53,381 nucleotides of DNA from an uncultured Desulfuromonadales bacterium (GTDB lineage: Bacteria > Desulfobacterota > Desulfuromonadia > Desulfuromonadales > CAZYXS01): positions 1 through 53,381 of the forward strand of contig CAZYXS010000002.1 in NCBI GenBank assembly GCA_964650955.1. The letters are read 5' to 3'. Of this stretch, positions 9,617 to 40,925 are shown piece by piece. The translations under genes were made by a program, and so were the position numbers. Under the pieces are notes generated by a model, which was given only the letters and a program-made list of their open reading frames with translations, did no database searches and was not told where the DNA came from. Positions within the stretch are counted from its first letter, which is position 1. Every line of letters begins with the position of its first letter.

Positions 9617-11494
9617 TCAGCCCTCGGCGCCGGTGGTTTCCGCCACGCAGGGCCCGGCCGCGGGGGACACGGTGCCCCCGCCGTTCGGACCACCCGCTAC
9701 GGGACCATGCTCGCCAAAGACCATCTCGCGGATTTCGTTTCCATCGAGGGTCTCCCGCTCCAGCAGGGCGTCGGCCACCAGCACCAGGCTCTTCCGGTTG
9801 GACTGCAGAATCTCCCGGGTTCGGGCGTGATTGTCCTGGACGATGCGGCGGATTTCGTTGTCGATTTCCACAGCGGTCGCCTCGCTGTAGTTTTTCATGT
9901 GGCCCATGTCGCGACCGAGGAAAACCTCCCCTTCCTTTTCGCCGTAGGAGAGGGGTCCCAGTTTTTCGCTCATGCCCCACTCACAGACCATCTTGCGGGC
10001 AATGGCGGTGGCCCGTTCGATGTCGTTGCTGGCGCCGGAGGTGATGGAGTTGAACACCAGTTCCTCCGCCACCCGGCCACCCAGCAGGGTGCAGATGCGG
10101 ATGTACAGCCCATCGCGGGTCTCGTTGTATTTCTCCTCCTCCGGCAGGTACATGGTGACGCCCATGGCCCGTCCGCGGGGGATGATGGAAACCTTGTGCA
10201 CCGGGTCGGCCCCAGGGAGGAACAGCGCCACCAGGGCATGGCCGGCCTCATGATAGGCGGTGACCTTCTTTTCCTGCTCGGTGATGACCATGGAGCGGCG
10301 CTCTGCCCCCATCATCACCTTGTCCTTGGCCGCCTCCAGATCACCCATGTTGACCTGGTCCTTGTTGGCACGGGCCGCCAGCAGGGCCGCCTCGTTGATC
10401 AGGTTGGCCAGGTCGGCACCGGAAAACCCGGGCGTCCCCTTGGCCAGCACCTCCATGTTGACGTCGGGGCCGAGGGGCACCTTGCGGGCATGCACGTTGA
10501 GGATTTTGAGCCGGCCCTTGACATCGGGCCGGGGGACCACCACCTGGCGGTCGAAGCGGCCAGGGCGCAGCAGGGCCGGGTCGAGAACGTCGGGGCGGTT
10601 GGTGGCGGCGATCAGAATGACCCCCTCGTTGGACTCGAAGCCGTCCATTTCCACCAGCAACTGGTTCAAGGTCTGCTCGCGCTCGTCATGGCCCCCGCCC
10701 AGACCGGCGCCGCGATGACGGCCGACAGCGTCGATCTCATCGATGAAGATGATGCAGGGGGCGTTCTTCTTGCCCTGGACGAAGAGGTCGCGCACCCGAC
10801 TGGCGCCGACGCCGACGAACATTTCCACGAAGTCGGAGCCGGAGATGGAGAAGAAGGGGACCCCCGCCTCGCCGGCGATGGCCCGCGCCAGCAGGGTCTT
10901 GCCGGTACCGGGAGAACCGACCAGCAGCACCCCCTTGGGGATGCGGCCGCCGAGGCGGCTGAACTTTTTCGGGTCCTTGAGAAAGGAGACGATCTCCTCC
11001 AGTTCATCCTTGGCCTCGTCGATACCGGCCACATCCTTGAACATGACCTGGGCCTGGTTGTCGGAGAGGAGTTTGGCCTTGCTCTTGCCGAAGCTCATGG
11101 CCTTGCCCCCGCCCGACTGCATCTGGCGCATGAAGAAGATCCAGACCCCGATCAGCAGCAGGATCGGCCCCCAGGAGACCAGCAGGGTGAACCAGAAACT
11201 GCGATCCTCGTCGGGCCGGGCCTGGATGATGACGCCCCGCTGGCGCAGTTCCGAGATCAGGTTCGGATCGTCGGGCGCAAAGGTCTTGAACATCACGTCG
11301 TCGTTGTATTTGCCTTCGATGTTGGAGCCCTGGACGGTGACTTCCCGCACCTTCCCCTCGTCGACGGCCTCGAGGAAGGCGGTGTAGGTGATCGGCTTCT
11401 GTTCCCGGTCCTTCTGGGTCATCATGTTGAAGAGCAGGATCATGACCAGCGAAATCACCAGCCAAAGTGCCAGGTTTTTATAGAATTGATTCAC
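9617..11494 (-). CDS. ftsH: ATP-dependent zinc metalloprotease FtsH
   Basis: 625 aa. Two TM helices, Walker [14 protein letters not shown], Walker [34 protein letters not shown], and the Zn site HEAGHAL. Confidence 0.97.
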
Positions 11495-11595
11495 GTATCC
11501 CCCTAAAACGACTTGTTTCGCTCGCTGGCGCCGGCACCGGAGGGCCGACCGCGGTCGTGGAACGACACCGGTAAGCTACCACAAACCCTCTGATT

Positions 11596-23493: not shown

Positions 23494-25944
23494 ATGGAAC
23501 CAACACCGCAACTCGACCGTCGCACCTGCTGGGGGATGTTTTTCCTCTGCATGGCCACCCTGATGTACGAACTGATCCTGACCCGGATCTTTTCGGTGCT
23601 GATGTGGTATCACTTCGCCTCCATGGCCATTTCCCTGGCCCTGTTCGGCATGGGGGTGGCGGCCCTGACCGTCTACCTGCGCCCGGCCTGGTTTCCGCAG
23701 GAGCGGGTGCCATTCCTGGCCTCCCGCTTCGCCGCCCTGTTCGGCGTCGCGGTGGCGCTGTTCTTCGCCATCTTCGTGCTGTTCCGGTTGCAACCGCTCT
23801 TCGGTTTCAAGGTCCTGGCGTTTTTCCATCAACCCTTCTACCAGCCATTCCAGCAGGGTTTCTACGATCGGGCCCTCCCCACCGGTTTGCTCACCGGCCT
23901 GGCAGGGCTCTACCTGATCACCGCCCTCCCCTTCTTTTTCAGTGGGTTGAGCGTCACCCTGCTGCTCAGCCGTCACCTGAGCGGCATCAACCGCCTTTAT
24001 TGCTGGGACCTGCTCGGAGCGGGGGCCGGCTGCCTGTTGATCATCGCCGCCCTCAAGCTGCTGGGAGGCATCACGGCCATTCTGGCCATCGCCCTGATCG
24101 GCCTGCTTTCCGCCCTGCTGCTGATGCCCACCGGCACCTCCTCCATCCATCGGGCCGGCCTGTGGGCCGCAATGTTGCTGATGGTGGCGGCGGGAGGGGT
24201 CAACCTGGCGACCGATTTCGCGGAAATCCGCTTCGTGCGCGGCCGCTACGAGCCGAACCTGCTCTGGAGCAAATGGAACTCTTTTTCCCGCCTGGCGGTC
24301 TACCCGACCCAGGCCCAGGAAATGGACCAGGGGTGGGGCCTTTCCCGCACCTATCGGGGGCCGATCCCTGAGCAACTCGGCATGGTGGTGGACGATACCG
24401 GTTACACCTCCATGTTTCGCCGCGACGACGAACGTTTTCGCGAGTATTTCCGCGCCAACGTACTCGCCCTTCCCTACACCCTCTATCACCAGCCGACTTC
24501 CCTGATCATCGGCCCCGGCGGCGGCAAGGACGTATTGGTAGCCCTGGCCATGGAGTCGCGCCATGTCACTGCGGTGGAGATCAACCCCTTGATCGCCGAG
24601 GCAGTCAACCAGCGCTTCGCCCCTTTTACCGGAGCCCTGTACGACGATCCGCGGGTGGAACTGGCCCTCGACGAGGGGCGCAGCTTCATCCGCCGCTCGC
24701 CGCAGCGCTACGACCTGATCCAGGCCTCGGCGGTGTTCGGCCGCAACGCTCCGGCGGCCGGCGCCTTCACCCTCTCGGAAAACAACCTCTATACCGTCGA
24801 GGCCTTCCGCGACTACTGGAACCACCTCACACCTGACGGAATCCTGACCATTTCCCGGTTCATCTTCGAGCGGGAGACCCTGCGGCTGGTCTCCCTCGGC
24901 CTGGCGCTGCTGCAACAGGAGGGGGTAAGCGATCCGGCCGCCCACCTGGCGGTGATCAAGGAGCGGGGCCTGGCCAATTTCATGCTCAAGCGCTCCCCCT
25001 TCACCCCGCAGGAAATTCAGCAGTTGCGGGAAACGGCCAGGGCCCGGGCATTCGAAGTGGTCTTCCTCCCCGACCAGCGCAGCGGCGACAGCCCCTATGC
25101 CCGCCTGATTGCCACCGGGGGGAGTGAGGATTTTTATCAAAGCTTCCCCTTCGACATCCGCCCCACCGACGATGACCGGCCGTTTTTCTATTACATGTTC
25201 AAACCCCAGGATTTCGTGCGGCTGCTCGGCTTTCCGGAGCAGAGCAACTTCGAGGACCGGGCGGTTTTGATGCTGCGCAACCTGCTGGTGGTGGTCAGCC
25301 TGTTCGTGGCCCTGTTCCTGCTGCTCCCTTTGATCATCGCCAGCCGGGGCAGGCAACCGGCACCGGGGCGCGGTTGGCGCAACCTCTACTTCGCCTGCCT
25401 GGGGCTGGGCTTCATGCTGGTGGAGATCGGCCTGATGCGCCGCTTTGTTCTCTTCCTCGGCCCGCCAATCTACTCCCTGGCGGTGATCCTCTGCACGGTG
25501 CTGGTCTGCTCAGGCCTGGGCGCGCTGCTGGCGGGGCGAATTCCGCCCGGACGGGAGAAACGGGTCCTGCCGATGATCCTCTTGGCACTGGTTTTGCTCA
25601 CTGGAATCACCATATTGACCCTGCCGCCGCTGCTGCAGATGGGGATCACCGCGCCGCTGCCGCTGCGCTGCCTGCTGACGGCGGCGATTCTGGCTCCCCT
25701 GAGTTTGCTGCTCGGCATGCCGCTGCCCCTGGGGATGCGCCTGTTCCACCCGGACAGCGCCGAAGTTGCCTGGAGTTGGGGGATCAACAGCGCCACCAGC
25801 GTGCTCGGCACCATCCTGGCGGTGATCCTGGCCATGAATTTTGGTTTCAACCTGACCCTGCTGGGCGGGATGGCCGTCTACCTGGTCGCCTTGGCGCCGG
25901 TGCTGGCCTACCGGTCGGCACCTCACCTGGCCCCGACCCATTGA
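23494..25944 (+). CDS. fused polytopic membrane / spermidine-synthase-like (class I SAM-dependent aminopropyl/methyl-transferase fold) protein
   Basis: 816 aa. About 7 N-terminal TM helices. The central soluble domain has LIIGPGGGKDVLVAL...VTAVEINP...LDEGRSFI...YDLIQAS (SpeE-like). About 6 C-terminal TM helices. GGAG RBS. Confidence 0.75.
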   Translation: MEPTPQLDRRTCWGMFFLCMATLMYELILTRIFSVLMWYHFASMAISLALFGMGVAALTVYLRPAWFPQERVPFLASRFAALFGVAVALFFAIFVLFRLQPLFGFKVLAFFHQPFYQPFQQGFYDRALPTGLLTGLAGLYLITALPFFFSGLSVTLLLSRHLSGINRLYCWDLLGAGAGCLLIIAALKLLGGITAILAIALIGLLSALLLMPTGTSSIHRAGLWAAMLLMVAAGGVNLATDFAEIRFVRGRYEPNLLWSKWNSFSRLAVYPTQAQEMDQGWGLSRTYRGPIPEQLGMVVDDTGYTSMFRRDDERFREYFRANVLALPYTLYHQPTSLIIGPGGGKDVLVALAMESRHVTAVEINPLIAEAVNQRFAPFTGALYDDPRVELALDEGRSFIRRSPQRYDLIQASAVFGRNAPAAGAFTLSENNLYTVEAFRDYWNHLTPDGILTISRFIFERETLRLVSLGLALLQQEGVSDPAAHLAVIKERGLANFMLKRSPFTPQEIQQLRETARARAFEVVFLPDQRSGDSPYARLIATGGSEDFYQSFPFDIRPTDDDRPFFYYMFKPQDFVRLLGFPEQSNFEDRAVLMLRNLLVVVSLFVALFLLLPLIIASRGRQPAPGRGWRNLYFACLGLGFMLVEIGLMRRFVLFLGPPIYSLAVILCTVLVCSGLGALLAGRIPPGREKRVLPMILLALVLLTGITILTLPPLLQMGITAPLPLRCLLTAAILAPLSLLLGMPLPLGMRLFHPDSAEVAWSWGINSATSVLGTILAVILAMNFGFNLTLLGGMAVYLVALAPVLAYRSAPHLAPTH

Positions 25945-25963: not shown

Positions 25964-27034
25964 TTGACCCGACGCCTTCTCATGACCTTGCTCCCCCTGC
26001 TGCTTCTGCTGGCCGCCTGCGACCGCGGCGAAAGAGGCCTGAGCGGCAGCATCATGTTCGGCGACCGGCCACTGGCCGGCGCCCAGGTGGAAATCTACCT
26101 GCGGGGGGAAAAGGATCGCAGCACCCTCCCCTTTGCGGTCACCAACAGCGACGACCGGGGCGGCTATCGCATCAGTCTGCCGCCGGGCCGCTATTATGTC
26201 ATCGGCAAGAAAAGGGAAGAGCTCCCCGGCGGTCAGGTGCGCATGCTGATGGCCGAGTGCCCGGCCAACCCCCTCGAGGTCGCCGCCGGCCTGACCAGTG
26301 TTCCCCCTTTCAGCCTGCGGGAGATGGGGCGGGACGGCGGCCTTGCTCCCGACGCCGACACCTACCTTCAAGGGCGAATCATTAACGAAGGGGCACCGGT
26401 GGCGGAAGCCTTCGTCTATGTCTACAGCGCCGATGCCACTGGGCTGATGGGGCCCTCTTACGGAGAGGCGGTGCAGAGCGACGCGGAGGGGAACTTCCGC
26501 ATCAACCTGCCCGCCGGGCAATGGTACCTGGCGGCGCGCAAACGGGCCGACGGAGCGCGCATGGGCGAACCGGCCCCGGGGGACCTCAACGGCAGCTTCC
26601 CGGGCAATCCGGTGACCCTGGCCAAGGGAAAAACCCTGGATCTGGGGGATTTCCCCCTGACCGTGGTCGACGCCAAGCTCCAGGCCAAACGCCAGGCGGA
26701 AGGGAAATTCCTGCGCACCGACACGGCCCTGCGGGGCCGGGTCACCGATCAGGATGGACAACCCCAGGCCCGGGTCTACGTCTTCGCCTACGCCGACAGC
26801 CGCATGGTGGGCAAACCGGCCTTCATCTCCGACCCTACCGACGCCGAGGGGCGCTACACCCTCTACCTCGGGCAGAGCGGTACTTACTACATCGGCGCCC
26901 GCAGCACCTTCGGCGGCCCCCTTGAGCCGGGGGAATGGGTCGGCACCTTCGACGGCCGGGCCGACCACGGGGCCAATGCGCCCCAGGGCAAGATCACGGA
27001 TTTGGCCGACATCATCGTCCGGGAGGTCTGGTGA
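25964..27034 (+). CDS. carboxypeptidase-regulatory-like three-module lipoprotein, paralog 1
   Basis: TTG start with AAAGGA RBS. Lipobox LLLLAAC. Three about 100-aa modules. Module 2 has AGQWYLAARKRADGARMGEPAPGDLNGSFPGNPV and module 3 has SGTYYIGARSTFGGPLEPGEWVGTFDG. The protein ends in ...REVW. Confidence 0.7.
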   Translation: MTRRLLMTLLPLLLLLAACDRGERGLSGSIMFGDRPLAGAQVEIYLRGEKDRSTLPFAVTNSDDRGGYRISLPPGRYYVIGKKREELPGGQVRMLMAECPANPLEVAAGLTSVPPFSLREMGRDGGLAPDADTYLQGRIINEGAPVAEAFVYVYSADATGLMGPSYGEAVQSDAEGNFRINLPAGQWYLAARKRADGARMGEPAPGDLNGSFPGNPVTLAKGKTLDLGDFPLTVVDAKLQAKRQAEGKFLRTDTALRGRVTDQDGQPQARVYVFAYADSRMVGKPAFISDPTDAEGRYTLYLGQSGTYYIGARSTFGGPLEPGEWVGTFDGRADHGANAPQGKITDLADIIVREVW

Positions 27035-31666: not shown

Positions 31667-32533
31667 ATGCGTCCCTTGTTCCCAACCCTGCTGCTGTTGC
31701 TGCTGACCGCCTGCAGTCTGCCAAGCCCGGCCCCGCCGGTGCTGGAACTGGAGGATGCGGTGATCCGCGATGAGCAGGTCTGGGGGGGCGAGGTGCGGAT
31801 CCGGGGGATCGTCACGGTGAAGAAGGAAGGGCGCCTCACCATCCTGCCCGGAACCCGGGTGGTCTTCGCCCCTCTCGACCGCGACGGAGACGGCATCGGC
31901 GACGGAGAACTGCTGGTGGAAGGGGCCCTGGTGGCCCGCGGGACGGCGGCCCAGCCGATCCTGTTCACCAGCGGGGCGGAAAAACCGAAAAAAGCGGACT
32001 GGAAATTCCTCTATCTCGATTTCGCCCGCGAGGCGCAAATCGAATACCTGATCTCCGAATACGCCTTCAGCGGGGTGCAGATCCATTTCTGCAAAGCGCG
32101 GGTGGCCAACTCCGTATTCCGTTACAACATCGATGGGCTGCGCTTCTCCACCGTCAACCTGGAGGCGACGGGCAACCTGATCCATGACAACACCCACGGA
32201 GTACGCTACGAGGAGCGCCGGGGCACCGCCCATCTGCATCACAACACCATCCGGGATAACGACATCGGCATCTTCCCCGTCACCCGGGGGGAGGACCGCT
32301 CGCTGTTCGAATACAACAACATCACCGGCAGCCGCCAGTACCAAGTGAAACTCGGTCTGGAGCAGGCAGGTGATGTCACCCTGCCCCGCAACTGGTGGGG
32401 CAGCAACGATCCGGCAGTCATCGAGTCAAGCTTTTTCGACCACCGCTTCGATGCGACCCTCGGCCGGGTCAGCGCCCCCCAGCCCCTGGCCGCGCCAGTG
32501 GCGCCGGCGGGCCCCGCAGGAGTCAAGCCATGA
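31667..32533 (+). CDS. NosD-like beta-helix lipoprotein (short type)
   Basis: Lipobox LLLLTAC. TILPGTRVVFAPLDRDGDGIGDGELLVEGAL.ARGT...PILFTS, then beta-helix repeats and LPRNWWGSNDP. It is collinear with the N-terminal half of the 34982-36811 protein. Confidence 0.7.
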   Translation: MRPLFPTLLLLLLTACSLPSPAPPVLELEDAVIRDEQVWGGEVRIRGIVTVKKEGRLTILPGTRVVFAPLDRDGDGIGDGELLVEGALVARGTAAQPILFTSGAEKPKKADWKFLYLDFAREAQIEYLISEYAFSGVQIHFCKARVANSVFRYNIDGLRFSTVNLEATGNLIHDNTHGVRYEERRGTAHLHHNTIRDNDIGIFPVTRGEDRSLFEYNNITGSRQYQVKLGLEQAGDVTLPRNWWGSNDPAVIESSFFDHRFDATLGRVSAPQPLAAPVAPAGPAGVKP

Positions 32534-33447
32534 GTATCGACCGCCGCCAATTCATTCTCGCCAGCCTGCGCGCCGCCCTGGCCGCGGCCGCCGCCGGCGC
32601 CGTCCCCGCCCTCTGGCTCCCCCGTCCCGCCGCCGCCACCTCCCCCGGGCCGCTGGTGGCCCTGCGCAAGGGGGGGGATATCCCCCGCCTGGTGGATGAG
32701 GTGCTGGCCGCCCTGGGCGGGATGAAACAGTTCGTCAAAACCGGCGAAACCGTGGTAGTCAAACCCAACATCGGCTGGGACCGCACGGTGGAACTGGCTG
32801 CCAACACCCACCCGCTGGTGGTACGCCGGGTGGTGGAGCACTGCCTGGAGGCGGGCGCGAAAAAGGTCCAGGTCTTCGACCGCACCTGTAACGACCCGCG
32901 CCGCTGCTACGTGGCCAGCGGCATCCAGGAGGCGGTGGAAGGGTTGCGCGCCGACCGCGTCAGCGTGGAGCACATGGAGCGCCGGGCCTACCAGGATCTG
33001 GACATCGGCCAGGGGGTGGAGCTGACCAGCTGGTCCTTCTACCAACCGGCGCTGCAGGCCGACCGCTTCATCAACCTGCCCATCGCCAAACACCACTCCA
33101 TCTCCCGCCTGACCCTGGGGATGAAGAACATCATGGGGGTGATCGGCGGCAACCGCGGCACCCTGCACCGCCGCCTGGAGGAGTCCCTCGCCGATATCAA
33201 CAGCGTGGTCCATTCGGACCTGACCCTCATCGACGCCACCCGCATCCTGGTGGCCAACGGCCCGCAGGGGGGACGAATTGAAGATGTCCGCCAGACCGAA
33301 ACCCTGATTGCTTCTGCCGACATCGTCGCCGCCGATGCCCTGGCCACCACTCTTTTCGACCTCAAGCCGGAGGATATTCCCACCCTGGTCACCGCCGCCC
33401 GACGGGGGCTGGGAGTGATGGACCTCGCCAAGATTCGCCGGGCATGA
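32530..33447 (+). CDS. TAT-exported DUF362-family protein
   Basis: ATG 32530 overlaps the upstream TGA. Twin-arginine signal MSIDRRQFILASL...AAAAAGA. DUF362-like blocks VVVKPNIGW, NLPIAKHHSISRLTLGMKNIMGVIGG and IDATRILVANGPQGG. The track start 32395 is an upstream extension. Confidence 0.7.
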   Translation: MSIDRRQFILASLRAALAAAAAGAVPALWLPRPAAATSPGPLVALRKGGDIPRLVDEVLAALGGMKQFVKTGETVVVKPNIGWDRTVELAANTHPLVVRRVVEHCLEAGAKKVQVFDRTCNDPRRCYVASGIQEAVEGLRADRVSVEHMERRAYQDLDIGQGVELTSWSFYQPALQADRFINLPIAKHHSISRLTLGMKNIMGVIGGNRGTLHRRLEESLADINSVVHSDLTLIDATRILVANGPQGGRIEDVRQTETLIASADIVAADALATTLFDLKPEDIPTLVTAARRGLGVMDLAKIRRA

Positions 33448-34985
33448 GAACGCGGCCGTTGCGCCGGTGGCGCCGCGCCACCCAATTACTGGCCCTGCTC
33501 GGGGTGATCTGGTTGTTTCTGCAGACCGACTACCAGGGGCAGGACGAGCTCGCCTTCCCCGTGGCCCTGCTGTTTCGTCTCGATCCCCTGGCCGCTCTGG
33601 CCGCAGCCCTGGCACCGGGGGACTTCCCCTGGGGCCTGCTCTGGCCGGCCCTGCTGCTGCTCGCCTTGACGGTGGTGCTGGGGCGGTTTTTCTGCGGCTG
33701 GCTCTGCCCCCTGGGCACCACCCTCGACGGCTGCGGCGCCCTGCTCGGCGCCGACAACACCACCCCCAGGCCTCGCTGGCGGCGGGTGAAATACCTGCTG
33801 CTGTCCGGCTTGAGTGCGGCGGCCCTGGGGGGTGTGCAACTGCTCGGGGTCTTCGACCCGCTGGCGATCTTCCTGCGCACCCTGACCCTGTCCCTGTTTC
33901 CGGCCTGGAACCTGGCCCTCAACGGCCTGTTCGAGCACTTTTACGCCAGTCAGACCCCCCTTGTCTCCCCCTTGCTCGACTGGGTCTATCCCTTCGCCCG
34001 GGATTACCTGATGGCTTTCCACCAGCCGGTGTTCACCCTCGGCCTGTTCACCCTCGGGGTGTTCGTCGCCATCGCGTTGCTGGAACGCTTCGAGCGCCGC
34101 TTCTGGTGCAAGAATCTCTGCCCCCTTGGGGCCCTGCTCGGCCTGTGCGCCCGCCACGCCCGCCTGCGCCACCTGCCGGCCCCCGATTGCGGCCACTGCG
34201 AGCAATGTACCGCCGCCTGCGCCAGCGGCGCCACCAACCGCCGGCATCATCAGCCCAGCGAATGTCTGCTCTGTTTCGATTGCGCCGGCCACTGCCCCGC
34301 TGCGGAGGTCCAGCTGTTCTGGCGCCGGGCCCCGGCGACGGCGGGGATCGACCTGACCCGCCGCGGCACCGTCGGCGCCCTGGCCGCAGGCGTCCTGCTG
34401 GCGCCGGTAGTGCGCAGCGCCCCGGCCCAGTACCGCCTCGAACCACTGCTGCTGCGCCCCCCGGGGGCGCTGGCGGAAGAAGAATTTCTGCGCCGCTGCG
34501 TCCGCTGCGGCGAATGCCTGAAGGTTTGCATCGGCGCAGCCCTCCACCCGGCCCTGCTGCAGGCCGGCGCCACCGGCCTGTGGACGCCGGTGGTGATGCC
34601 CCGCATCGGCTACTGCGAATACAACTGCACCCTGTGCGGACAGGTCTGCCCCACCGGGGCCATCCGGCGCCTGCCCCTGGAGGAGAAGCGCAAGGTGGTG
34701 ATCGGGTTGGCGGTGATCGAAAAGGATCGCTGCCTCCCCTTCGCCCGCGGCGAGGAATGCCTGGTCTGCGAGGAGCATTGCCCCACCGGCGAGAAGGCCA
34801 TCGTCTTCGAGGATAAGGACGTGCTGGTGCAGGGGGAGGTGCGGCGACTGAAGCTACCGCAGGTGGTCAAGGAGCGCTGCATCGGCTGCGGCATTTGCGA
34901 AACCCGCTGCCCGCTGGAGGGGCGCAGCGCCATCCGGATCTTCAACGACAAGGAGAGCCGCCGGGTCGAGCAGCGTTGGGATTAG
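33444..34985 (+). CDS. NapH/NosH-like membrane polyferredoxin
   Basis: 513 aa. ATGA overlap with the DUF362 gene. TM helices with FCGWLCPLG and WCKNLCPLG (2x CX3CP). Six Cys clusters: CGHCEQCTAAC, CLLCFDCAGHCP, CVRCGECLKVC, CTLCGQVCP, CLVCEEHCP and CIGCGICETRCP. Confidence 0.8.
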   Translation: MRTRPLRRWRRATQLLALLGVIWLFLQTDYQGQDELAFPVALLFRLDPLAALAAALAPGDFPWGLLWPALLLLALTVVLGRFFCGWLCPLGTTLDGCGALLGADNTTPRPRWRRVKYLLLSGLSAAALGGVQLLGVFDPLAIFLRTLTLSLFPAWNLALNGLFEHFYASQTPLVSPLLDWVYPFARDYLMAFHQPVFTLGLFTLGVFVAIALLERFERRFWCKNLCPLGALLGLCARHARLRHLPAPDCGHCEQCTAACASGATNRRHHQPSECLLCFDCAGHCPAAEVQLFWRRAPATAGIDLTRRGTVGALAAGVLLAPVVRSAPAQYRLEPLLLRPPGALAEEEFLRRCVRCGECLKVCIGAALHPALLQAGATGLWTPVVMPRIGYCEYNCTLCGQVCPTGAIRRLPLEEKRKVVIGLAVIEKDRCLPFARGEECLVCEEHCPTGEKAIVFEDKDVLVQGEVRRLKLPQVVKERCIGCGICETRCPLEGRSAIRIFNDKESRRVEQRWD

Positions 34986-36811
34986 GGACCTGGCTGCAGG
35001 GTGAGGGCGCGGATCTGGTGGTCGCGGCTGCCGAACAGAATCAGCCCGGCGAAGGGCACCGGGCGGCTCTGGATCGCCCCTCCGGCCTGAAAGCTGGCAA
35101 GCAGGTCGCCGCTGTCCCGGCCGACCACCGACAGCACCCCGCCGTTATCCCCGACCAGCACCCGCCGCCCCTGTACCAGGGGGGTGCCGTAACTGGGATG
35201 GGGCAAGGCCCGGCGCCAGACAGAGGTGCCGGTTGCCAGGTCGAGGTGGTGGAGGGCGCCTGCCGCCGTGGCCAGAAACAGGGCCTCGCCGTCGATCACC
35301 GGTGCGCCGTAGAAGCAGACTTCACCCAGCGGCCGCCGCCACAGCTCCATCCCTTCCCGATCGAAAGCGGTCAGGGTCCCCTCCCGGTCCACCACCACCG
35401 ACCCGACCGGCCCCAGGGCCGGCGGGGTCAACAGCGGCGCGGCCAGGCGCCGCTGCCAGAGCAGTTCTCCTTTCGGGTTCAGAACATTAAGACTGCCGTC
35501 GCCGGCGGCCAGGTAGATGCGTCCGTCGGCCACCACGGGGGTGGCCCTTAGGGGCCCGGCGGTGCCGAACTGCCAGCGCAACGCCCCGCTGGCCGCATCC
35601 AGGGCGTAGAGGGTGCCGTTCCAGGCCGGCACCAGCAGCAGATCGTCGACCCGCGCCAACCCGCCCTGACGGTGGTCATCCGCCGGCGAAGGGGCGTAGC
35701 GGAAGCGCCAGAGCACCCGTCCCCTGCCCCGCTCCAGGGCCAAGACCTCCCGCCCCCAGGTCTGCACGTAGACCCGTTCAGCATCCAGCGCTACGGCACC
35801 GTCGGCCACCTCCCCCAAATCCGCCTGCCACCGCAGCCTGCCCTTGGCATCCAGGGCGTAAAGGCGGCCATCCCAGCCGGGAATGAACGCCTCCCCGGAC
35901 GCCACCATGGCGGTGGCATCGACAAATCCCGCCGTCGGCAGTTGCCAGGCCGGCTGCAGGCGCAGTCCGTCCCGGGGGCCGGTCCCATCGATCCAGGCGG
36001 GTGCCGGGGTCAGGGTCACCGTGCCGATGCCGGGATCCTGGCGGCGATCGAAGATCCCCTCGGCCACCTGCTCCGGGTCGGCACTCCCCCACCAGTTCTC
36101 CCCCAGCTGGACGTCGGCGGCATAGAAATCCCCGAGGCGGAAGTTGTCCCGGTTGAGCAGGATGTTGTTCTCCTCCACCACCGAGGTGCGGTCGCTTTCG
36201 AACAGGAAGATGCCGGCGCCGTTGCGACGGATGAGGTTGCGGCGGATCTCCACCTTGGCGTTGCGGAAGTTTATCCCCTTGCCCTGGTTGTTTTCGATGA
36301 GGTTGTGGCGCCAGGTGAAGGTCGCCTCCCCAAGGCGGCAGCCGTCGATATTGTTGTGGATGTGGCAATCCTCGACGAGGCCGCGGGTGAAATGGGCATG
36401 CAGGGTGTAGGCGCTGTCGCGGATTTCGCAGTAGCGCAGGTGGATTTCCTTGGAGAAATCGGCATGGATTTCCAGCCAGTCCCCTGGCTGGGGATGCTCG
36501 GCCGCGGAGCGGAAGCGGATCGGTGCCTCGGGGGTCCCCAGGGCGCGCAGCCGCCCTTCGATGTTGAGGGTGCCGTCCCCCAGGCCGTCCTGATTGAGGT
36601 CCTTGGGCACAAAGGCGATGTCGGTGCCGGGTTCGATGGTCAGCACCGCCCCCTTGGCGACCTTGACCTCGCCGTCGATCAGGATCGAGCCGCGCCAGAC
36701 CGTATCCTCGGTGAGGACCAGATTGTGCAGTCGCTGCACCACCGGCGCCTTCGCCAAAGGGGCGCAGGCGGTCAGGGCCAGCAGAAAAACAGCGGCCAGG
36801 GCCTTTACCAC
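34982..36811 (-). CDS. NosD-like beta-helix (short type) fused to PQQ-like beta-propeller, lipoprotein
   Basis: GTG start. Lipobox LLALTAC. The N-terminal half parallels the 31667 protein (TIEPGTDIAFVPKDLNQDGLGDGTLNIEGRLRALGT...LGENWWGSADP). The C-terminal ~330 aa has repeated G.lyALDa.tG...W propeller blades. Confidence 0.75.
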   Translation of the reverse strand: MVKALAAVFLLALTACAPLAKAPVVQRLHNLVLTEDTVWRGSILIDGEVKVAKGAVLTIEPGTDIAFVPKDLNQDGLGDGTLNIEGRLRALGTPEAPIRFRSAAEHPQPGDWLEIHADFSKEIHLRYCEIRDSAYTLHAHFTRGLVEDCHIHNNIDGCRLGEATFTWRHNLIENNQGKGINFRNAKVEIRRNLIRRNGAGIFLFESDRTSVVEENNILLNRDNFRLGDFYAADVQLGENWWGSADPEQVAEGIFDRRQDPGIGTVTLTPAPAWIDGTGPRDGLRLQPAWQLPTAGFVDATAMVASGEAFIPGWDGRLYALDAKGRLRWQADLGEVADGAVALDAERVYVQTWGREVLALERGRGRVLWRFRYAPSPADDHRQGGLARVDDLLLVPAWNGTLYALDAASGALRWQFGTAGPLRATPVVADGRIYLAAGDGSLNVLNPKGELLWQRRLAAPLLTPPALGPVGSVVVDREGTLTAFDREGMELWRRPLGEVCFYGAPVIDGEALFLATAAGALHHLDLATGTSVWRRALPHPSYGTPLVQGRRVLVGDNGGVLSVVGRDSGDLLASFQAGGAIQSRPVPFAGLILFGSRDHQIRALTLQPGP

Positions 36812-37839
36812 ATCTCCTCCACCAGGATCTCGACCCCCTTGAGGGCCTGCCCCTCCTTGACGATCACCGCGCGGTCCGGGCGCTTGTCGTAGGTGCCGTA
36901 AAGTTCACCGGGGGCCGGGGCGCCGCCGAGCTCGCTGCGGGCCACCAGGTAGTAGGTGCCGCCGCGGGGGAAGGAGAGCACGAAGCTGCCGTCCTTGCCG
37001 GTGGGCTGGGAGACGTACAGGGGGCGATTGAGCATCTGCGGGTCGTCGTAGAGCATCACCCGCAGGCCGGCCACCGGTTGTTTCTTCTTGTCGAGCACCC
37101 GGCCATGGATGCTGGTCTGGCCGAACAACTGATCGGCCAACCGCTCCACCTTTTCCGGCACCTCGAGCATCGGCAGCGCCAACCGGGCCACCGCTCCCTC
37201 CTTGAGCACCAGGGGATTGCCCGGGTAGTAGCCGATGAAGTCGCCGGCCTGCAGCGGCCCCATGGCCGCCCCGCTGTTGCGCTGGCGGGCCAGCAGGTAA
37301 TAGGTGCCGGCGGGCAGGTCCAGCTCGAACATCCCCTGGTCGTCCGTCGGCCCGGCGATGCCCAGCCCCATCCCTTTGAACTGGCTGGTCAGATCGGTAT
37401 AGACGTAAACCAGGGCACCGGCCAGGGGTTTGCCCTCGGCGCTGACCTGCCCGAGCACGCCGTTGGAGATCAACGCCTTCTGCTGGGGCAGCGGCAGTTT
37501 CTCCGGGACCAGGCCGAGGTTCATCTCCGTCAGGCCGGCGGCGGGAACATGCACCGGGTTGCGCCCGTAATAGGCGAACAAGCCCTCCCCCCGGGCCAGG
37601 AAATAGTAGTCCCCCGGCGGCAGCTCCAGCATGAACAGGCCGTCGGCCTTGGTGGGGAGGGAGGTTGCCGTCGGCGTGCCGGTCAGGGTGGTGGCCGAAA
37701 GAGGATAGGCCTGGACGGTCACTCCGCCGACCCCCTTGGTGTTGACGGCGGCCTTGCCGGACACCGGGGCGGCCTGGGCGCCGAGGGGGGTCAGGAGCAA
37801 AAAAAAGAGGAGCAGCGGGAGGGAGTGGCAAAAGCGCAT
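36805..37839 (-). CDS. carboxypeptidase-regulatory-like three-module protein, paralog 4
   Basis: Signal ...TPLGAQA. Module 2 has AGTYYLLARQRNSGAAMGPLQAGDFIGYYPGNPL and module 3 has GGTYYLVARSELGGAPAPGELYGTYDK. It ends in ...EEMW and overlaps the downstream beta-helix gene by 7 nt. Confidence 0.7.
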   Translation of the reverse strand: MRFCHSLPLLLFFLLLTPLGAQAAPVSGKAAVNTKGVGGVTVQAYPLSATTLTGTPTATSLPTKADGLFMLELPPGDYYFLARGEGLFAYYGRNPVHVPAAGLTEMNLGLVPEKLPLPQQKALISNGVLGQVSAEGKPLAGALVYVYTDLTSQFKGMGLGIAGPTDDQGMFELDLPAGTYYLLARQRNSGAAMGPLQAGDFIGYYPGNPLVLKEGAVARLALPMLEVPEKVERLADQLFGQTSIHGRVLDKKKQPVAGLRVMLYDDPQMLNRPLYVSQPTGKDGSFVLSFPRGGTYYLVARSELGGAPAPGELYGTYDKRPDRAVIVKEGQALKGVEILVEEMW

Positions 37840-37921: not shown

Positions 37922-38878
37922 TCAGTTCAGCAACTGCCAACCCCAGCCAAGCAGGATGGCAATCCCCAGGCTGGAGGCCAGGAACACCCCGACCACCCGG
38001 GGCCGAAACAAACCGTAAAGGGCGATGGTGGCAGGAATGCTGGAAACGGGGCCGGCCAGCAGCAAGGTCAGGGCGGCCCCCGAGTCCATCCCCCGTTGCA
38101 GCAACCCCGCCAGGATCGGGATCAGGGGAATCTGGTTGACCGGCAACGGCAGGCCGATCAGGGCCGCCACCAGCACCGAGCCGAGGTTGTCTGCGCCGAC
38201 CAACCCCAGGATCCAGGAGGGTGGAACCAGGGTCACGATCACCGCCTCGAGGAGAATGGCCAGCAGCAGGAATTTGCCGGTGAAGATGGCCGCATCGAGG
38301 GTGCGGTCAAGGATGAAATGGAGGCGGCTGTCCCGGGGGACGATGATCATGCTCTTGACCCGGATGCCGCCGGCGGCGCCGATCACCCGCGCCGGGGCGA
38401 GGCTGCCGTCGGGGTTGTAGATTGGGGCGAGGCGCACCTGGGGCCCCGCCAGGTAGCCCTGTTTCTCCAGCAGCAGGGTGATCAGGCCGGCCCCCAGGCC
38501 GAGCAGGCCGGCACCGACAAATTTGAGCAGTGCCCAGTCGGCCCCGAGGCCGCGCCAGGTCAGCAGCAGGGCGTCGGGCCCCATCACCGGGGAGGTCACC
38601 AGCAGCGCCAGCAGCGGCGCCAGCGGGGTGCCGACCATGGCCAGGGAGATGGCGATGGGGAGAATGCCGCAGGCGCACAGGGGACTGACCATACCGACCA
38701 TGACCGCCAGCACCACCCCCCAACCGCCGGCGCGGCTGAGCAGGTCGCGAATCTTCAGGTCGAGCTTGTACCCCTTGATGATCCCCACCAGCAGGCAGGC
38801 CAGGAGGAAAAACCACCACATCTTGGCGATTTCCGTCCAGACCACGTCCAGCATGCGGGCGAGCAGGGATTCAGGCAT
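37922..38878 (-). CDS. ArsP/YraQ-type (DUF318) predicted permease
   Basis: A protein of about 318 aa with 8-10 TM helices and the family-typical vicinal Cys motif MVSPLCACGILPIA. I prefer ATG 38878 (ATGCCTGA overlap with the FmdE stop) over track start 38908. Confidence 0.65.
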   Translation of the reverse strand: MPESLLARMLDVVWTEIAKMWWFFLLACLLVGIIKGYKLDLKIRDLLSRAGGWGVVLAVMVGMVSPLCACGILPIAISLAMVGTPLAPLLALLVTSPVMGPDALLLTWRGLGADWALLKFVGAGLLGLGAGLITLLLEKQGYLAGPQVRLAPIYNPDGSLAPARVIGAAGGIRVKSMIIVPRDSRLHFILDRTLDAAIFTGKFLLLAILLEAVIVTLVPPSWILGLVGADNLGSVLVAALIGLPLPVNQIPLIPILAGLLQRGMDSGAALTLLLAGPVSSIPATIALYGLFRPRVVGVFLASSLGIAILLGWGWQLLN

Positions 38879-39308
38879 CAAACTTCGACTCCTCGCTTGT
38901 CTCGGCAACGATCACCAGTTCCGCCAACGGGGCCTGGCGCAAGTCGGCCAAGGCCGCCTCCGCCGCCGGATCGCCGGCATCGAGCAGCCGCCGGCAGGCG
39001 GCGGCCCGCTCCAGGGCGGCGGGGGTCAACTCGGCAGCCACCTGGGTGCCGCCACTATCGGTCAGCAGCAGCCGATGGCGCCCTTGCGGGTCCACCTCCA
39101 GGCGCCCTTCTTCGGGCAGGCAACCGGTGACCAGGGCGATGCCGTCGACGGCGCAGGTCTCCATCTGGTAGCAGGCCCGCAGCCCCTCTTGCCCGTCGCC
39201 CAAGGCCAGCAGCGCCGCCTCTGCCAGGCGCGCCCCCAGGGTGCTCATCGGGCAGTAGTGGCCGTGCCGCTGGCGGATACGCAGGAACAGTTCGGGAATC
39301 TCGGCCAT
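38871..39308 (-). CDS. FmdE/FwdE-domain protein
   Basis: 145 aa. RHGHYCPMSTLGARL and CAVDGIALVTGC match the FmdE-family Cys/His signature. Confidence 0.7.
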   Translation of the reverse strand: MAEIPELFLRIRQRHGHYCPMSTLGARLAEAALLALGDGQEGLRACYQMETCAVDGIALVTGCLPEEGRLEVDPQGRHRLLLTDSGGTQVAAELTPAALERAAACRRLLDAGDPAAEAALADLRQAPLAELVIVAETSEESKFDA

Positions 39309-39365: not shown

Positions 39366-40247
39366 TCAGAATTCGTAGTGATGGGGGCAGTCGGTGTCGC
39401 GGATCTCGTGATACTTGGCCGTCATGTCCGGGGTCAGGAAGCAGCGCACTTCCTTGAGCGCCCGCAGAAAGTGCTCCGTGGTGACCTGGGGAGCGTCCTG
39501 CTTGATGGCATTGACGGTGGCCCGCTTGCACAGGCTCTCGATGTCCCAGCCGACATACCCTTCGCTCAACTCGGCCAACTGGTCGCGGTCGATCCCCGGT
39601 GCCAGGTTCGGCATCTTGTCCATGTAGATGTCGAGCATGCCGCGGCGGTCGACGGCCCGGGGCGGATGGACGAAGACCTTGCGGTTGTAGCGTTTTTTCT
39701 CCTTGATCAGCGCCTGGTCGACGGTGTCGATGCGGTAGCAGGAGCCGAGCAGCGCCACCCCCGGAACCTGGTTGATGCGATCGACCTGCTCGATGAACAG
39801 GCGGCTGAGTTCCTTGTCGGCGAAGGTCGGCGGCACCGCCCGCCGGTTGCCCCGGCTCCACTCGTAGTCGCAGCCGGCCCGGGGGCAGAGCCATTCGCAG
39901 TCGGAGATGAACAGCACACAGGGTGCCTCGTGGACGGCGCAGTCGAAGGCCTCCACCAGCTCCGGCCCCTTGCCGAGCATCTCCTGGCCGGAGATGTAGA
40001 CGAAGGAGACGCCGGCCTCCTTGGCGCAGGCCTCGGCGAGCATGGTGATGCCGGTGCCGAGGGGCCCCCAGAGCATCACCCCGGCAGGAATGCCGAGGTT
40101 GTGCATTTTGAGCATTTCCGGCTTCTTCAGCGGCAGGCAGACCATCTCCTTGAGGGTCTCCTTGACATCGGCATAACCGCCGATATCGTCCCAGCCCAGG
40201 ACCGGGTCCCGAACCTCGTAAAAGATGTTTGCCAGTTTTCTGTGCAT
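39366..40247 (-). CDS. AAA+ family protein with degenerate Walker A/B, sensor-1 and Arg-finger positions (probable pseudo-ATPase)
   Basis: 293 aa, clearly alignable to the classic AAA (CDC48/FtsH) module. GVMLWGPLGTGITMLAEA aligns with Fts[29 protein letters not shown] with [19 protein letters not shown] with IAATNRPD, and KEKKRYNRK with LRPGRFDR. Confidence 0.75.
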   Translation of the reverse strand: MHRKLANIFYEVRDPVLGWDDIGGYADVKETLKEMVCLPLKKPEMLKMHNLGIPAGVMLWGPLGTGITMLAEACAKEAGVSFVYISGQEMLGKGPELVEAFDCAVHEAPCVLFISDCEWLCPRAGCDYEWSRGNRRAVPPTFADKELSRLFIEQVDRINQVPGVALLGSCYRIDTVDQALIKEKKRYNRKVFVHPPRAVDRRGMLDIYMDKMPNLAPGIDRDQLAELSEGYVGWDIESLCKRATVNAIKQDAPQVTTEHFLRALKEVRCFLTPDMTAKYHEIRDTDCPHHYEF

Positions 40248-40334
40248 CGGCTCACTCCGCCGTGGAAGATGAGAAGAAAGACAACGCTAGGCCTCCCAGC
40301 ATTTTAGCAACATACATGCCAGCTGCGCAAAGGC

Positions 40335-40652
40335 TCAGAGGTCGTTGAGCAGCCGGTAGATCTTTTGCTCCAGGTCCCAGACCGCCGCCCCCTGGTCCTC
40401 GGCCCCGGCCTCCTCGAACAACAGCCGGGCCCGGTCGAGCTGACCGTGGGCCTTGAGCAGCACCGGGGTCAGTTCCGCCTCCAGACGGATGCGGGGGATC
40501 TCTCCCACCTGCTCTTCCAGTTCCGCCAGGCCCTGCAAGGCCTGCTGCAGGCTGCGCGCTTCCGGGTCCGGTTGCTCTCCGGCAGCGGGCAGGCCGGCAC
40601 AAAATGCTCTGACGTCCGCCACCACGCCGCGGTAACGCTCGGAAATACTCAT
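40335..40652 (-). CDS. hypothetical helical protein (105 aa)
   Basis: ATG 40652 with AAGGAGAA RBS. MSISERYRGVVADVRAF... is predicted all-helical. I recognise no family. The 189-aa track ORF extends upstream across the thi promoter/riboswitch region and is unlikely. Confidence 0.5.
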   Translation of the reverse strand: MSISERYRGVVADVRAFCAGLPAAGEQPDPEARSLQQALQGLAELEEQVGEIPRIRLEAELTPVLLKAHGQLDRARLLFEEAGAEDQGAAVWDLEQKIYRLLNDL

Positions 40653-40756
40653 GGATTGCTTCTCCTTGGATTCGGCGCCAGAGGACTCCCTGGCAATGGA
40701 ATTTTCTATCTTAGGAGAAAGCCGGGGGGAAGACAACGCCAAAGCCGGAAAAAAAG

Positions 40757-40786
40757 TTGACTTCACCGGCCACTCGCTGCTAGCTT
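40757..40786 (+). promoter_or_regulatory. possible sigma70-type promoter of the thi operon
   Basis: TTGACT (40757-62), an 18-nt spacer, then TAGCTT (40781-86), preceded by an A-tract (ggaaaaaaag). The -10 element is weak. Confidence 0.3.
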
Positions 40787-40806
40787 GATCGTCTACATCA
40801 CTGATA

Positions 40807-40895
40807 CGCCCTAGGGGAGTTTCTGACTGAGAGCCTTGCTGCGGCAAGGCGACCCTTTGAACCTGATCCGGATCATACCGGCGGAGGGAAGCGGC
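40807..40895 (+). promoter_or_regulatory. TPP (thiamine pyrophosphate) riboswitch aptamer
   Basis: CGCC-CUAGGGGAG...CUGAGA...ACCCUUUGAACCUGAUCCGGAUCAUACCGGCGGAGGGAAGC-GGCG. The invariant THI-box elements CUGAGA and ACCUGAUC.GGAU.AU.CCGGCG.AGGGA are all present, directly upstream of thiF. Confidence 0.9.
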
Positions 40896-40925
40896 GCACG
40901 ACATCGGGGGGATCTCCTCTGATCG

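Follow-up and report, generated by a model that had tools for sequence, protein, structure and literature searches.

A conserved AAA-like protein with replaced nucleotide-handling motifs in a predicted envelope and metal-handling gene cluster of an uncultured Desulfuromonadales bacterium

Can an AAA module that has exchanged the residues with which its relatives handle ATP be a maintained protein, and if so, what might it do in the cell? The question is raised by a gene encoding a 293-residue AAA-like protein, here called P0001, on a 53,381-nucleotide stretch of DNA from an uncultured Desulfuromonadales bacterium (contig CAZYXS010000002.1 of the assembly GCA_964650955.1; this whole stretch is the window below). 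An earlier, sequence-only reading of the window had placed an AAA module in this open reading frame (ORF) and noted that its key catalytic positions appeared to be replaced. We recover the ORF with exactly the same coordinates on the minus strand (Table 1), and each of the strings quoted in that reading (GPLGTGIT, ISDCE, SCYRID, KEKKRYNRK, SDCEWLCPRAGCDYEW, DTDCPHHYEF and GYVGWDIESLCKRATVNAI) is found in P0001. The analysis described here leads us to conclude that P0001 is very probably a conserved pseudo-ATPase that does not hydrolyse nucleotide, and that its gene is, with similarly high confidence, an integral part of a cluster devoted to the envelope and to metal handling. On balance we lean towards a composite reading in which the catalytically dead AAA module would serve as a nucleotide-independent scaffold or adaptor in the trafficking of thiophilic metals; the specific role of P0001 as a scaffold or in metal hand-off is put forward tentatively.

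The AAA fold and its nucleotide-handling positions

P0001 belongs to the classic clade of AAA proteins, since both its core (AAA, PF00004, 3.7e-15, 57 bits vs. a cut-off of 21.2, residues 57–193) and its classic-clade lid (AAA_lid_3, PF17862, 3.3e-12, 46.2 bits vs. a cut-off of 27.2, residues 219–260) exceed the Pfam gathering scores. It is a single-domain protein that keeps the N-terminal linker motif 'WDDIGG..VK' and is devoid of an N-domain, a protease and a coiled coil. The nearest solved structures, as found with HMMER, are those of VAT D2 and p97. The AlphaFold2 model built with an input of 24 family members is confident (predicted local distance difference test score, pLDDT, 90.6; predicted template-modelling score, pTM, 0.88), and Foldseek matches it best to p97 D2 and to the ATPase domain of PAN, with template-modelling (TM) scores of 0.73–0.82 at 25–30% identity. 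The Pfam matches and the model thus agree with the earlier statement that the AAA fold and the C-terminal lid are retained.

Residue equivalences were taken from three alignments, namely, HMMER to VAT/p97, BLASTP to the FtsH encoded in the same window (9617–11575, minus strand; 31% identity to P0001), and MAFFT with canonical Cdc48 D2. All three give the same equivalences without any disagreement on the catalytic positions. A shift of register that would return Lys or Glu to these positions was therefore rejected, as none of the alignments restores either. Where the consensus of Walker A is GxxGxGK[ST], P0001 reads GPLGTGIT, with Ile67 for the Lys and Leu63 for a Pro, so that the change from GSPGTGKT perceived by eye is borne out. 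The same holds for sensor-1, where ATNRPD has become SCYRID and the polar residue (Asn or Thr) expected at the end of beta-4 is Tyr171, and for the second region of homology, where RPGRFDR has become KEKKRYNRK: K182 aligns with the first Arg of RPGRFD(R) and, once one inserted residue is allowed for, R186 with the second. For Walker B, the sequence-only reading was right that the motif is altered from IDEID to ISDCE, but its assignment (Asp kept, Glu replaced by Cys) was one residue off; the alignments put Ser115 in place of the Walker B Asp and Asp116 in place of the catalytic Glu, with C117 following the motif. The consensus hhhhDE accordingly reads VLFI-S115-D116 in P0001.

Three further changes come in addition to those first noticed, namely, the loss of pore loop 1, the growth of pore loop 2, and the replacement of the lid Ala by Trp234. 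Five residues bearing the aromatic-hydrophobic-Gly motif of pore loop 1, the substrate-gripping element of AAA translocases, are missing after K93 in all three alignments; this hallmark of AAA unfoldases and translocases is absent across the whole clade, including the archaeal relatives described below. The enlarged pore-loop-2 region was modelled by AlphaFold2 with a confidence of 82–86.

The homologue search over 5.8 billion proteins yielded 362 homologues (protein clusters), the best 120 of which are almost all 293 residues long and 62–93% identical to P0001. A scan of GTDB species genomes was positive for 108 species, and 80 loci were retrieved, coming from Desulfuromonadales, Deferrisomatales, Nitrospirota, Desantisbacteria and Actinomycetota metagenome-assembled genomes (MAGs). 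Conservation was counted on 76 aligned full-length sequences of 53–100% identity, the orthologues lying at 53–91%. Leu63, Asp116, Tyr171 and Trp234 are present in all 76, Ser115 in 75 and C170 in 72, while Ile67 is found in 75 (the sole exception being Met), a count to be read with the caveat that one scan pattern, GITMLAEA, favours the Ile form. The basic patch is equally constant (K182, E183, R186, N188, R189 and K190, 76/76 each), and so is the pore-loop-2 region (Y128, W130, N134, R136 and P139-P140-T141, 76/76 each, with R123 likewise invariant). The altered Walker A, Walker B and sensor-1 positions are thus fixed in 75–76 of the 76 orthologues, none of which carries the canonical motifs. 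As judged from these alignments, the canonical nucleotide-handling residues are all replaced by fixed alternatives: Lys by Ile, DE by SD, Asn by Tyr, the sensor-2 Ala by Trp and the P-loop Pro by Leu.

Some positions are nevertheless kept: G61, G64, G66, T68 and D116 are invariant. Together with the Walker Lys still carried by the type-C archaeal relatives (see below), this could speak for a nucleotide-binding or slowly hydrolysing switch, in which phosphate would be held by the P-loop backbone and T68, with D116 as the base and a Lys or Arg from elsewhere in place of the Walker Lys. We regard such a switch as quite improbable, given that hydrophobic or aromatic residues have taken over four independent nucleotide contacts together (the Lys of Walker A, the Asp of Walker B and both sensor positions) and are fixed there, with nothing other than Ile or, once, Met at the position of the Lys. 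Two variant P-loops were seen. One, GPLGVGMT, has the Met just mentioned; the other, GPLGTGIKM in an Actinomycetota MAG (locus L080), keeps Ile67 and reads GIKM for GITM, such that a Lys appears one position late. The latter copy has, as extracted, a His-rich N-terminus and lies near genes for a peptidase U32 and an ABC-2 transporter, away from FmdE/ArsP genes.

The missing motifs are all that would speak for gene decay, for a degenerate copy confined to one strain or for an artefact of sequencing. This explanation, to which we give practically no weight, was rejected on conservation and on the ratio of nonsynonymous to synonymous substitution rates (dN/dS): the family comprises the 362 protein clusters and 108 species mentioned above, identical substitutions recur in the 76 aligned orthologues, the frame is intact, the length is constant (about 293 residues among the best 120 of the 362), and the fold is confident. 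At the sequence level, P0001 is under strong purifying selection, with pairwise dN/dS values of 0.04–0.24 between the orthologues and the window copy. Together with the kept operon position, these data support, as far as sequences can tell, the earlier view that the gene is not in decay but encodes a conserved pseudo-ATPase.

Operon context and the metal question

The AAA-like gene is the first of an operon in which it is followed by the genes for an FmdE-domain protein, an ArsP_1/DUF318 permease, a secreted Ig-like protein and a NosD/PQQ protein. That FmdE-like and ArsP-type permease genes lie downstream on the same strand had been noted from the sequence and is confirmed by Pfam and synteny. 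When searched with the window proteins by tblastn, the same order was seen in about 60 loci with enough flank, and in Deferrisoma the operon genes overlap by 11 nucleotides. Among the syntenic FmdE partners, HGHxC is present in 65/65 and CxxDG in 63/65; the permease partners have C[AS]C in 63/65. In crystal structures of FmdE proteins, residues of the HGHxC and CxxDG motifs are the ligands of a His-His-Cys-Cys metal site with Zn or Ni bound, and the authors of these structures point out that FmdE genes frequently adjoin metal transporters (PMC2954224). The ArsP/SO_0444/SaoE family has been read as serving soft-metal or organometal efflux via a C-x-C motif (bioRxiv 10.1101/2022.07.06.499078), and the window permease bears a weak similarity to the SO_0444 Cu/Zn efflux protein and to SaoE. 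A metal-binding or scaffold role of P0001 would fit this context, in which the metal ligands of FmdE and the CxC of the permease are intact.

Table 1. Position of P0001, its sequence elements and the surrounding genes in the window
Feature	Position	Strand	Remarks
AAA-like gene (P0001, putative pseudo-ATPase), 293 residues and stop	39366..40247	(-)	stop codon 39366-39368
GGAG ribosome-binding site	40255..40258	(-)	8-11 nucleotides 5′ of the AAA-like ATG; read from sequence
Walker A remnant G61-P-L-G-T-G-I67-T68	40044..40067	(-)	canonical GPPGxGKT; VAT GPPGVGKT, FtsH GSPGTGKT
Pore-loop-1 deletion site G92-K93-G94	39966..39974	(-)	gap vs. VAT KWVGESE, FtsH MFVGVGA
Walker B remnant V-L-F-I-S115-D116-C117-E118	39894..39917	(-)	canonical hhhhDE, then I-D
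Enlarged pore-loop-2 region P122-D144	39816..39884	(-)	about 10 residues longer than in Cdc48 D2/FtsH (MAFFT)
Sensor-1 region G168-S-C170-Y171-R-I-D	39726..39746	(-)	canonical ATNRPD; three alignments
Remnant of the second region of homology I181-K-E-K-K-R186-Y-N-R-K190	39678..39707	(-)	invariant basic patch at the arginine-finger location
Lid motif G230-Y-V-G-W234-D	39543..39560	(-)	Trp at the sensor-2 position, where classic-clade 'GAD' has Ala
C-terminal tail D286-C-P-H-H-Y-E-F293	39369..39392	(-)	consensus [DE]C.H.Y.[FY]
Sigma-54-type -24/-12 element TGGCATgtatgTTGC	40307..40321	(-)	59 nucleotides 5′ of the ATG; one mismatch to TGGCAC-N5-TTGC
Upstream ORF, 189 residues as listed	40335..40904	(-)	same-strand tblastn matches in most Desulfuromonadales loci
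FmdE-domain protein, 145 residues, second gene	38871..39308	(-)	Pfam FmdE 1.4e-17
ArsP_1/DUF318-type permease, 328 residues, CAC motif, third gene	37922..38908	(-)	Pfam ArsP_1 1.8e-37
Secreted Ig-like protein (CarboxypepD_reg/DUF4198-like), fourth gene	36805..37839	(-)	synteny
Fusion of a NosD-like beta-helix with a PQQ-like beta-propeller, fifth gene	34982..36811	(-)	with the AAA-like gene in 36 of 37 positive genomes

Does P0001 itself have conserved residues that could bind a metal? Of the Cys and His residues that the sequence-only reading had described as new, C287, H289, H290 and H2 are essentially fixed, while C117, C121 and C126 are not. Within the C-terminal tail, D286, C287, H289, Y291 and F293 are present in 76/76 each, and H290, like H2 at the other end of the protein, in 75/76. 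The tail was modelled with low confidence (mean pLDDT 54 for residues 291–293 and 80 for 281–290) and, for this reason, is probably flexible; all of the near-invariant D286, C287, H289, H290 and H2 lie in the tail and the N-terminus, both of which are modelled with low confidence. A family-wide CxxxCxxxxC metal site in SDCEWLCPRAGC was rejected because C117, C121 and C126 are not universal: C121 is Ala in 49/76, and C117 and C126 have been lost in several lineages. In some lineages, C117, C126 and C170 may form a site in the former gamma-phosphate pocket.

The phylogenetic profile, which covered 201 genomes of the class, ties the AAA-like gene closely to the exported part of the cluster. The gene is carried by 36 of the genomes, in a single copy in each; the NosD/PQQ gene occurs in the same 36 genomes and in one more, and 164 have neither. 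In the exceptional genome (G002), the upstream ORF (locus L089, 10471–11048) abuts the gene for NosD/PQQ, with no AAA-FmdE-ArsP(-Ig-like) block present. In Nitrospirota loci (L068–L070), FmdE and ArsP were not detected, and the Ig-like, FG-GAP and NosD/PQQ genes are kept downstream of the AAA-like gene, directly upstream of which lies a gene for a class-V aminotransferase of the cysteine-desulfurase type. In terms of gene order, this arrangement shows that the AAA-like gene is tied more constantly to the envelope module than to FmdE and ArsP, while the aminotransferase hints at a possible connection to sulfur mobilisation. In one of these MAGs (L068; 5458–6663 and 8180–13994), the AAA-like gene is followed by Ig-like, FG-GAP, Ig-like and NosD/PQQ genes, in this order.

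These observations bring in another explanation, namely, that P0001 would serve the exported components of the cluster, either as a cytoplasmic chaperone in their maturation or as a regulator, and not as a partner of FmdE/ArsP. It might, for instance, hold the DUF362 protein while a cofactor is inserted, or feed back on sigma-54-dependent expression. This explanation draws on the persistence of the AAA-like gene next to the Ig-like and NosD/PQQ genes in Nitrospirota, on the near-perfect co-occurrence with NosD/PQQ (36 of 37 genomes), and on the DUF362 and polyferredoxin genes that neighbour the cluster in the window and at several loci. However, FmdE and ArsP directly follow the AAA-like gene in about 60 loci, with overlaps in some of them, and G002 keeps NosD/PQQ without the AAA-FmdE-ArsP block, so NosD/PQQ does not depend on the block for its presence. 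We therefore hold this explanation to be rather unlikely as compared with the preferred reading of a scaffold that works with FmdE and the permease.

Several further features of the locus bear on its expression and extent. The sigma-54 element of the window is found again 40–135 nucleotides 5′ of the orthologue in 46/75 loci, with looser matches in 7 more. Both arms of the cluster, i.e., the AAA-like operon and a plus-strand array of Ig-like/beta-helix genes, may be RpoN-dependent, as far as promoter motifs can tell. The plus-strand array starts at 25964, and a perfect sigma-54 element, TGGCACtggttTTGC, is located at 25583–25597 (+), about 370 nucleotides 5′ of it. The upstream ORF, of which at least the C-terminal approximately 106 residues are conserved, has no match in Pfam, NCBIfam or PADLOC; being placed before the sigma-54 element, it probably belongs to a separate transcript. 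At the other end of the operon, genes for a DUF362 protein and a NapH-like polyferredoxin (32395–34985, plus strand) converge on it in the window. In Deferrisoma and several other loci these genes are on the same strand, 3′ of NosD/PQQ, and because of this placement they are probably part of the same system.

Archaeal relatives and the scaffold reading

From what kind of ancestor could such a protein have come? A profile search of 1.84 billion representatives, complemented with relatives collected using one of the hits as a query, revealed distant single-domain relatives from Hydrothermarchaeales, which fall into three paralogue types. Type A has an intact GPPGGGKT, 'NE' in Walker B, Tyr at sensor-1 and 'GAD' in the lid. 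In type B, Walker A is destroyed (GPPKTSMRT), while the sensor-1 Asn and both Arg are kept. Type C has GPLGTGKG with the Lys kept, 'MD' in Walker B, YRID and the lid 'GWD'. The pore-loop-1 deletion, the pore-loop-2 insertion and the [DE]C.H.Y.[FY] tail are common to all three. A maximum-likelihood tree sets the bacterial family and the archaeal types apart from canonical AAA proteins (100/100); within it, the bacterial family is monophyletic (100/98), with archaeal type C as its sister group (100/99). The shared features and the tree together place the tail and the pore remodelling before the loss of the Walker Lys; on this sequence evidence, the tail, the pore-loop-1 deletion and the pore-loop-2 insertion predate the loss of the ATPase motifs. 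The Cys/His tail, listed as new in the sequence-only reading, did not arrive with the loss of ATPase activity, since the archaeal relatives share the tail and one of their types has an intact Walker A. Type A, ATP-competent by its motifs, is also without the threading loop.

In the archaeal genomes, type B stands in tandem with type C (or with a second copy) directly after URO-D, B12-binding and URO-D genes of the corrinoid-methyltransferase type, with FmdE genes and type A a few genes beyond the tandem. On the contigs of loci L084/L085, L086/L087 and L088, an ABC-2 transporter gene, radical-SAM genes and several FmdE genes are found near the AAA paralogues. The complementary loss of motifs suggests that types A, B and C would form a hetero-oligomer, and they may represent an uncharacterised hetero-oligomeric AAA complex tied to corrinoid or metal chemistry.

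Is P0001, then, the inactive subunit of a similar machine? It might regulate an active partner, which here could only be FtsH, or supply contacts to it, e.g., through R186. Precedents for such subunits exist in LAP1/LULL1-Torsin, the clamp-loader delta-prime, BchD-BchI, Pex1/Pex6 and FtsHi. The idea gains from the fact that the closest relatives are the three Hydrothermarchaeales paralogues with complementary motif loss, B and C being in tandem, and from the invariance of R186 and K182 in bacteria. The genomes argue otherwise. The window's genome, which is 94% complete, has no active AAA paralogue and no type-A or type-B paralogue, as ftsH is the one classic AAA gene in it besides that of P0001. 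Each of the 36 positive genomes of the class has the family in a single copy, and no further AAA gene was found within the conserved operon at the loci compared. Moreover, the AAA-like family is an accessory gene of a patchy cluster, while FtsH is universal. We consider the inactive-subunit explanation unlikely.

The preferred reading, in which the dead AAA module acts on its own as a scaffold or adaptor, could work as follows. The cleft positions are P, K, Y, A in type A, L, K, Y, W in type C and L, I, Y, W in the bacterial family. Because the four replacements are all larger hydrophobic or aromatic residues and co-vary between the clade types, the bulky L63, I67, Y171 and W234 would be expected to fill the former ATP cleft and to lock the lid. 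Arginine fingers normally contact the ATP of the neighbouring subunit; in P0001, the basic patch K182–K190 would instead pair with the new acidic residues E72, D116 and E118, replacing the nucleotide-mediated subunit contacts and leading to a constitutive, nucleotide-independent assembly. Such an assembly could serve in the cytoplasm as a scaffold or adaptor, bringing FmdE and its thiophilic cargo into order at the permease. The pore-loop-2 insertion and the Cys-His tail are the most conserved novel surfaces and hence the likely sites for a client or partner: the pore-2 surface (Y128, W130, N134, R136 and PPT) and the flexible D-C-P-H-H-Y-x-F tails would hold the client. This client, most likely FmdE or the thiophilic metal that it carries, would be presented to the permease for export to the periplasmic Ig-like and beta-helix proteins.

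Four observations weigh against this picture. The putative loss of ATP binding is read from residues only. C117, C121 and C126 are present in 60/76, 26/76 and 65/76, respectively, and are hence variable Cys residues. The tail is shared by archaeal relatives whose Walker A is intact. Finally, it is also found in Nitrospirota and Actinomycetota loci without FmdE and ArsP, and therefore is not specific to an FmdE/ArsP hand-off. In its most elaborate form, which we think improbable as a whole, the proposal would envisage a stand-alone, nucleotide-free AAA ring with a self-filled cleft and salt-bridged subunits. As a static docking platform in the cytoplasm, it would use its six Cys-His tails and its remodelled pore face to pass a thiophilic metal or metal-sulfide from FmdE to the CxC exporter, thereby building a periplasmic beta-helix/Ig-like metallo-complex; the bacterial protein would then be all that is left in bacteria of an ancestral hetero-oligomeric AAA machine with three paralogues, which would persist in Hydrothermarchaeales beside corrinoid methyltransferase genes.

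Relation to known systems

AAA+ pseudo-enzymes as such are already a known kind, and we did not find the stand-alone family and its operon described: a search of the literature on FmdE with AAA and a permease, on pseudo-ATPases, on inactive AAA+ proteins and on Hydrothermarchaeota corrinoid systems returned no description of either. New here are the archaeal A/B/C paralogues, the tree, the finding that the tail is older than the ATPase loss, the dN/dS values and the NosD/PQQ profile. What deserves attention is a free-standing classic-clade AAA protein that has no active paralogue in its genome and appears to be fixed in a 'dead' state across several phyla. The family is bound to an uncharacterised gene cluster, putatively under sigma-54 control and devoted to the envelope and to metal handling, in bacteria that respire metals and sulfur, and it would offer a clean natural test of what the AAA fold can do without nucleotide. 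Its operon provides a handle on FmdE domains, on ArsP/DUF318 CxC permeases and on NosD-like beta-helix arrays outside N2O reduction. Because the archaeal types A, B and C show a graded and complementary loss of motifs, the route from a motor to a scaffold may be traceable.

Among the canonical AAA proteins, VAT/p97-Cdc48 D2, PAN/Rpt and FtsH have the alpha/beta core and the four-helix lid in common with P0001. Unlike them, P0001 has no Lys in Walker A, no DE in Walker B and no Asn at sensor-1; pore loop 1 is missing, and it has an enlarged pore loop 2, a Trp at the sensor-2 position and a clade-specific tail. It falls well outside the NCBIfam models for CDC48, PAN, FtsH and CdvC, with 75–135 bits vs. 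cut-offs of 500–1008. No curated model in Pfam, NCBIfam or PADLOC captures the family beyond the generic AAA and lid models. The anti-phage ATPase IetA/IteA was considered and rejected as a generic AAA similarity (43 bits vs. a cut-off of 510 in NCBIfam); the PADLOC model of IetA gave 41 bits, over the lid only, and there is no IetS-like partner gene in the operon.

Scaffolding or regulatory roles are known for several inactive AAA+ modules, among them BchD of Mg-chelatase, which works within a metal-insertion machine, the clamp-loader delta-prime, Pex1/Pex6 D1, chloroplast FtsHi and LAP1/LULL1. To our knowledge, such modules almost always act beside an active AAA+ partner, either encoded nearby or fused. 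They resemble P0001 in having the AAA+ fold without catalysis, a fold that they use for assembly or regulation; P0001 differs in being a stand-alone member of the classic clade with no AAA partner but FtsH in its genome. Another group for comparison is made up of AAA+ and P-loop factors that assemble metal centres, namely, the MoxR-type CoxD and NorQ, CobS/CobT and the G3E GTPases, all of which are active NTPases. They have with P0001 a setting in common that is suggestive of metal-centre maturation or trafficking, but belong to other AAA+/P-loop clades, P0001 matching PF00004 and AAA_lid_3 only.

The Hydrothermarchaeales paralogues differ from P0001 in that there are three of them, types A and C of which keep the Walker Lys, and in that their neighbours are of the corrinoid-methyltransferase type, with no ArsP permease/NosD-like setting. 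In these relatives, as in P0001, pore loop 1 is deleted, pore loop 2 carries an insertion, the C-terminal tail is present and FmdE genes lie nearby.

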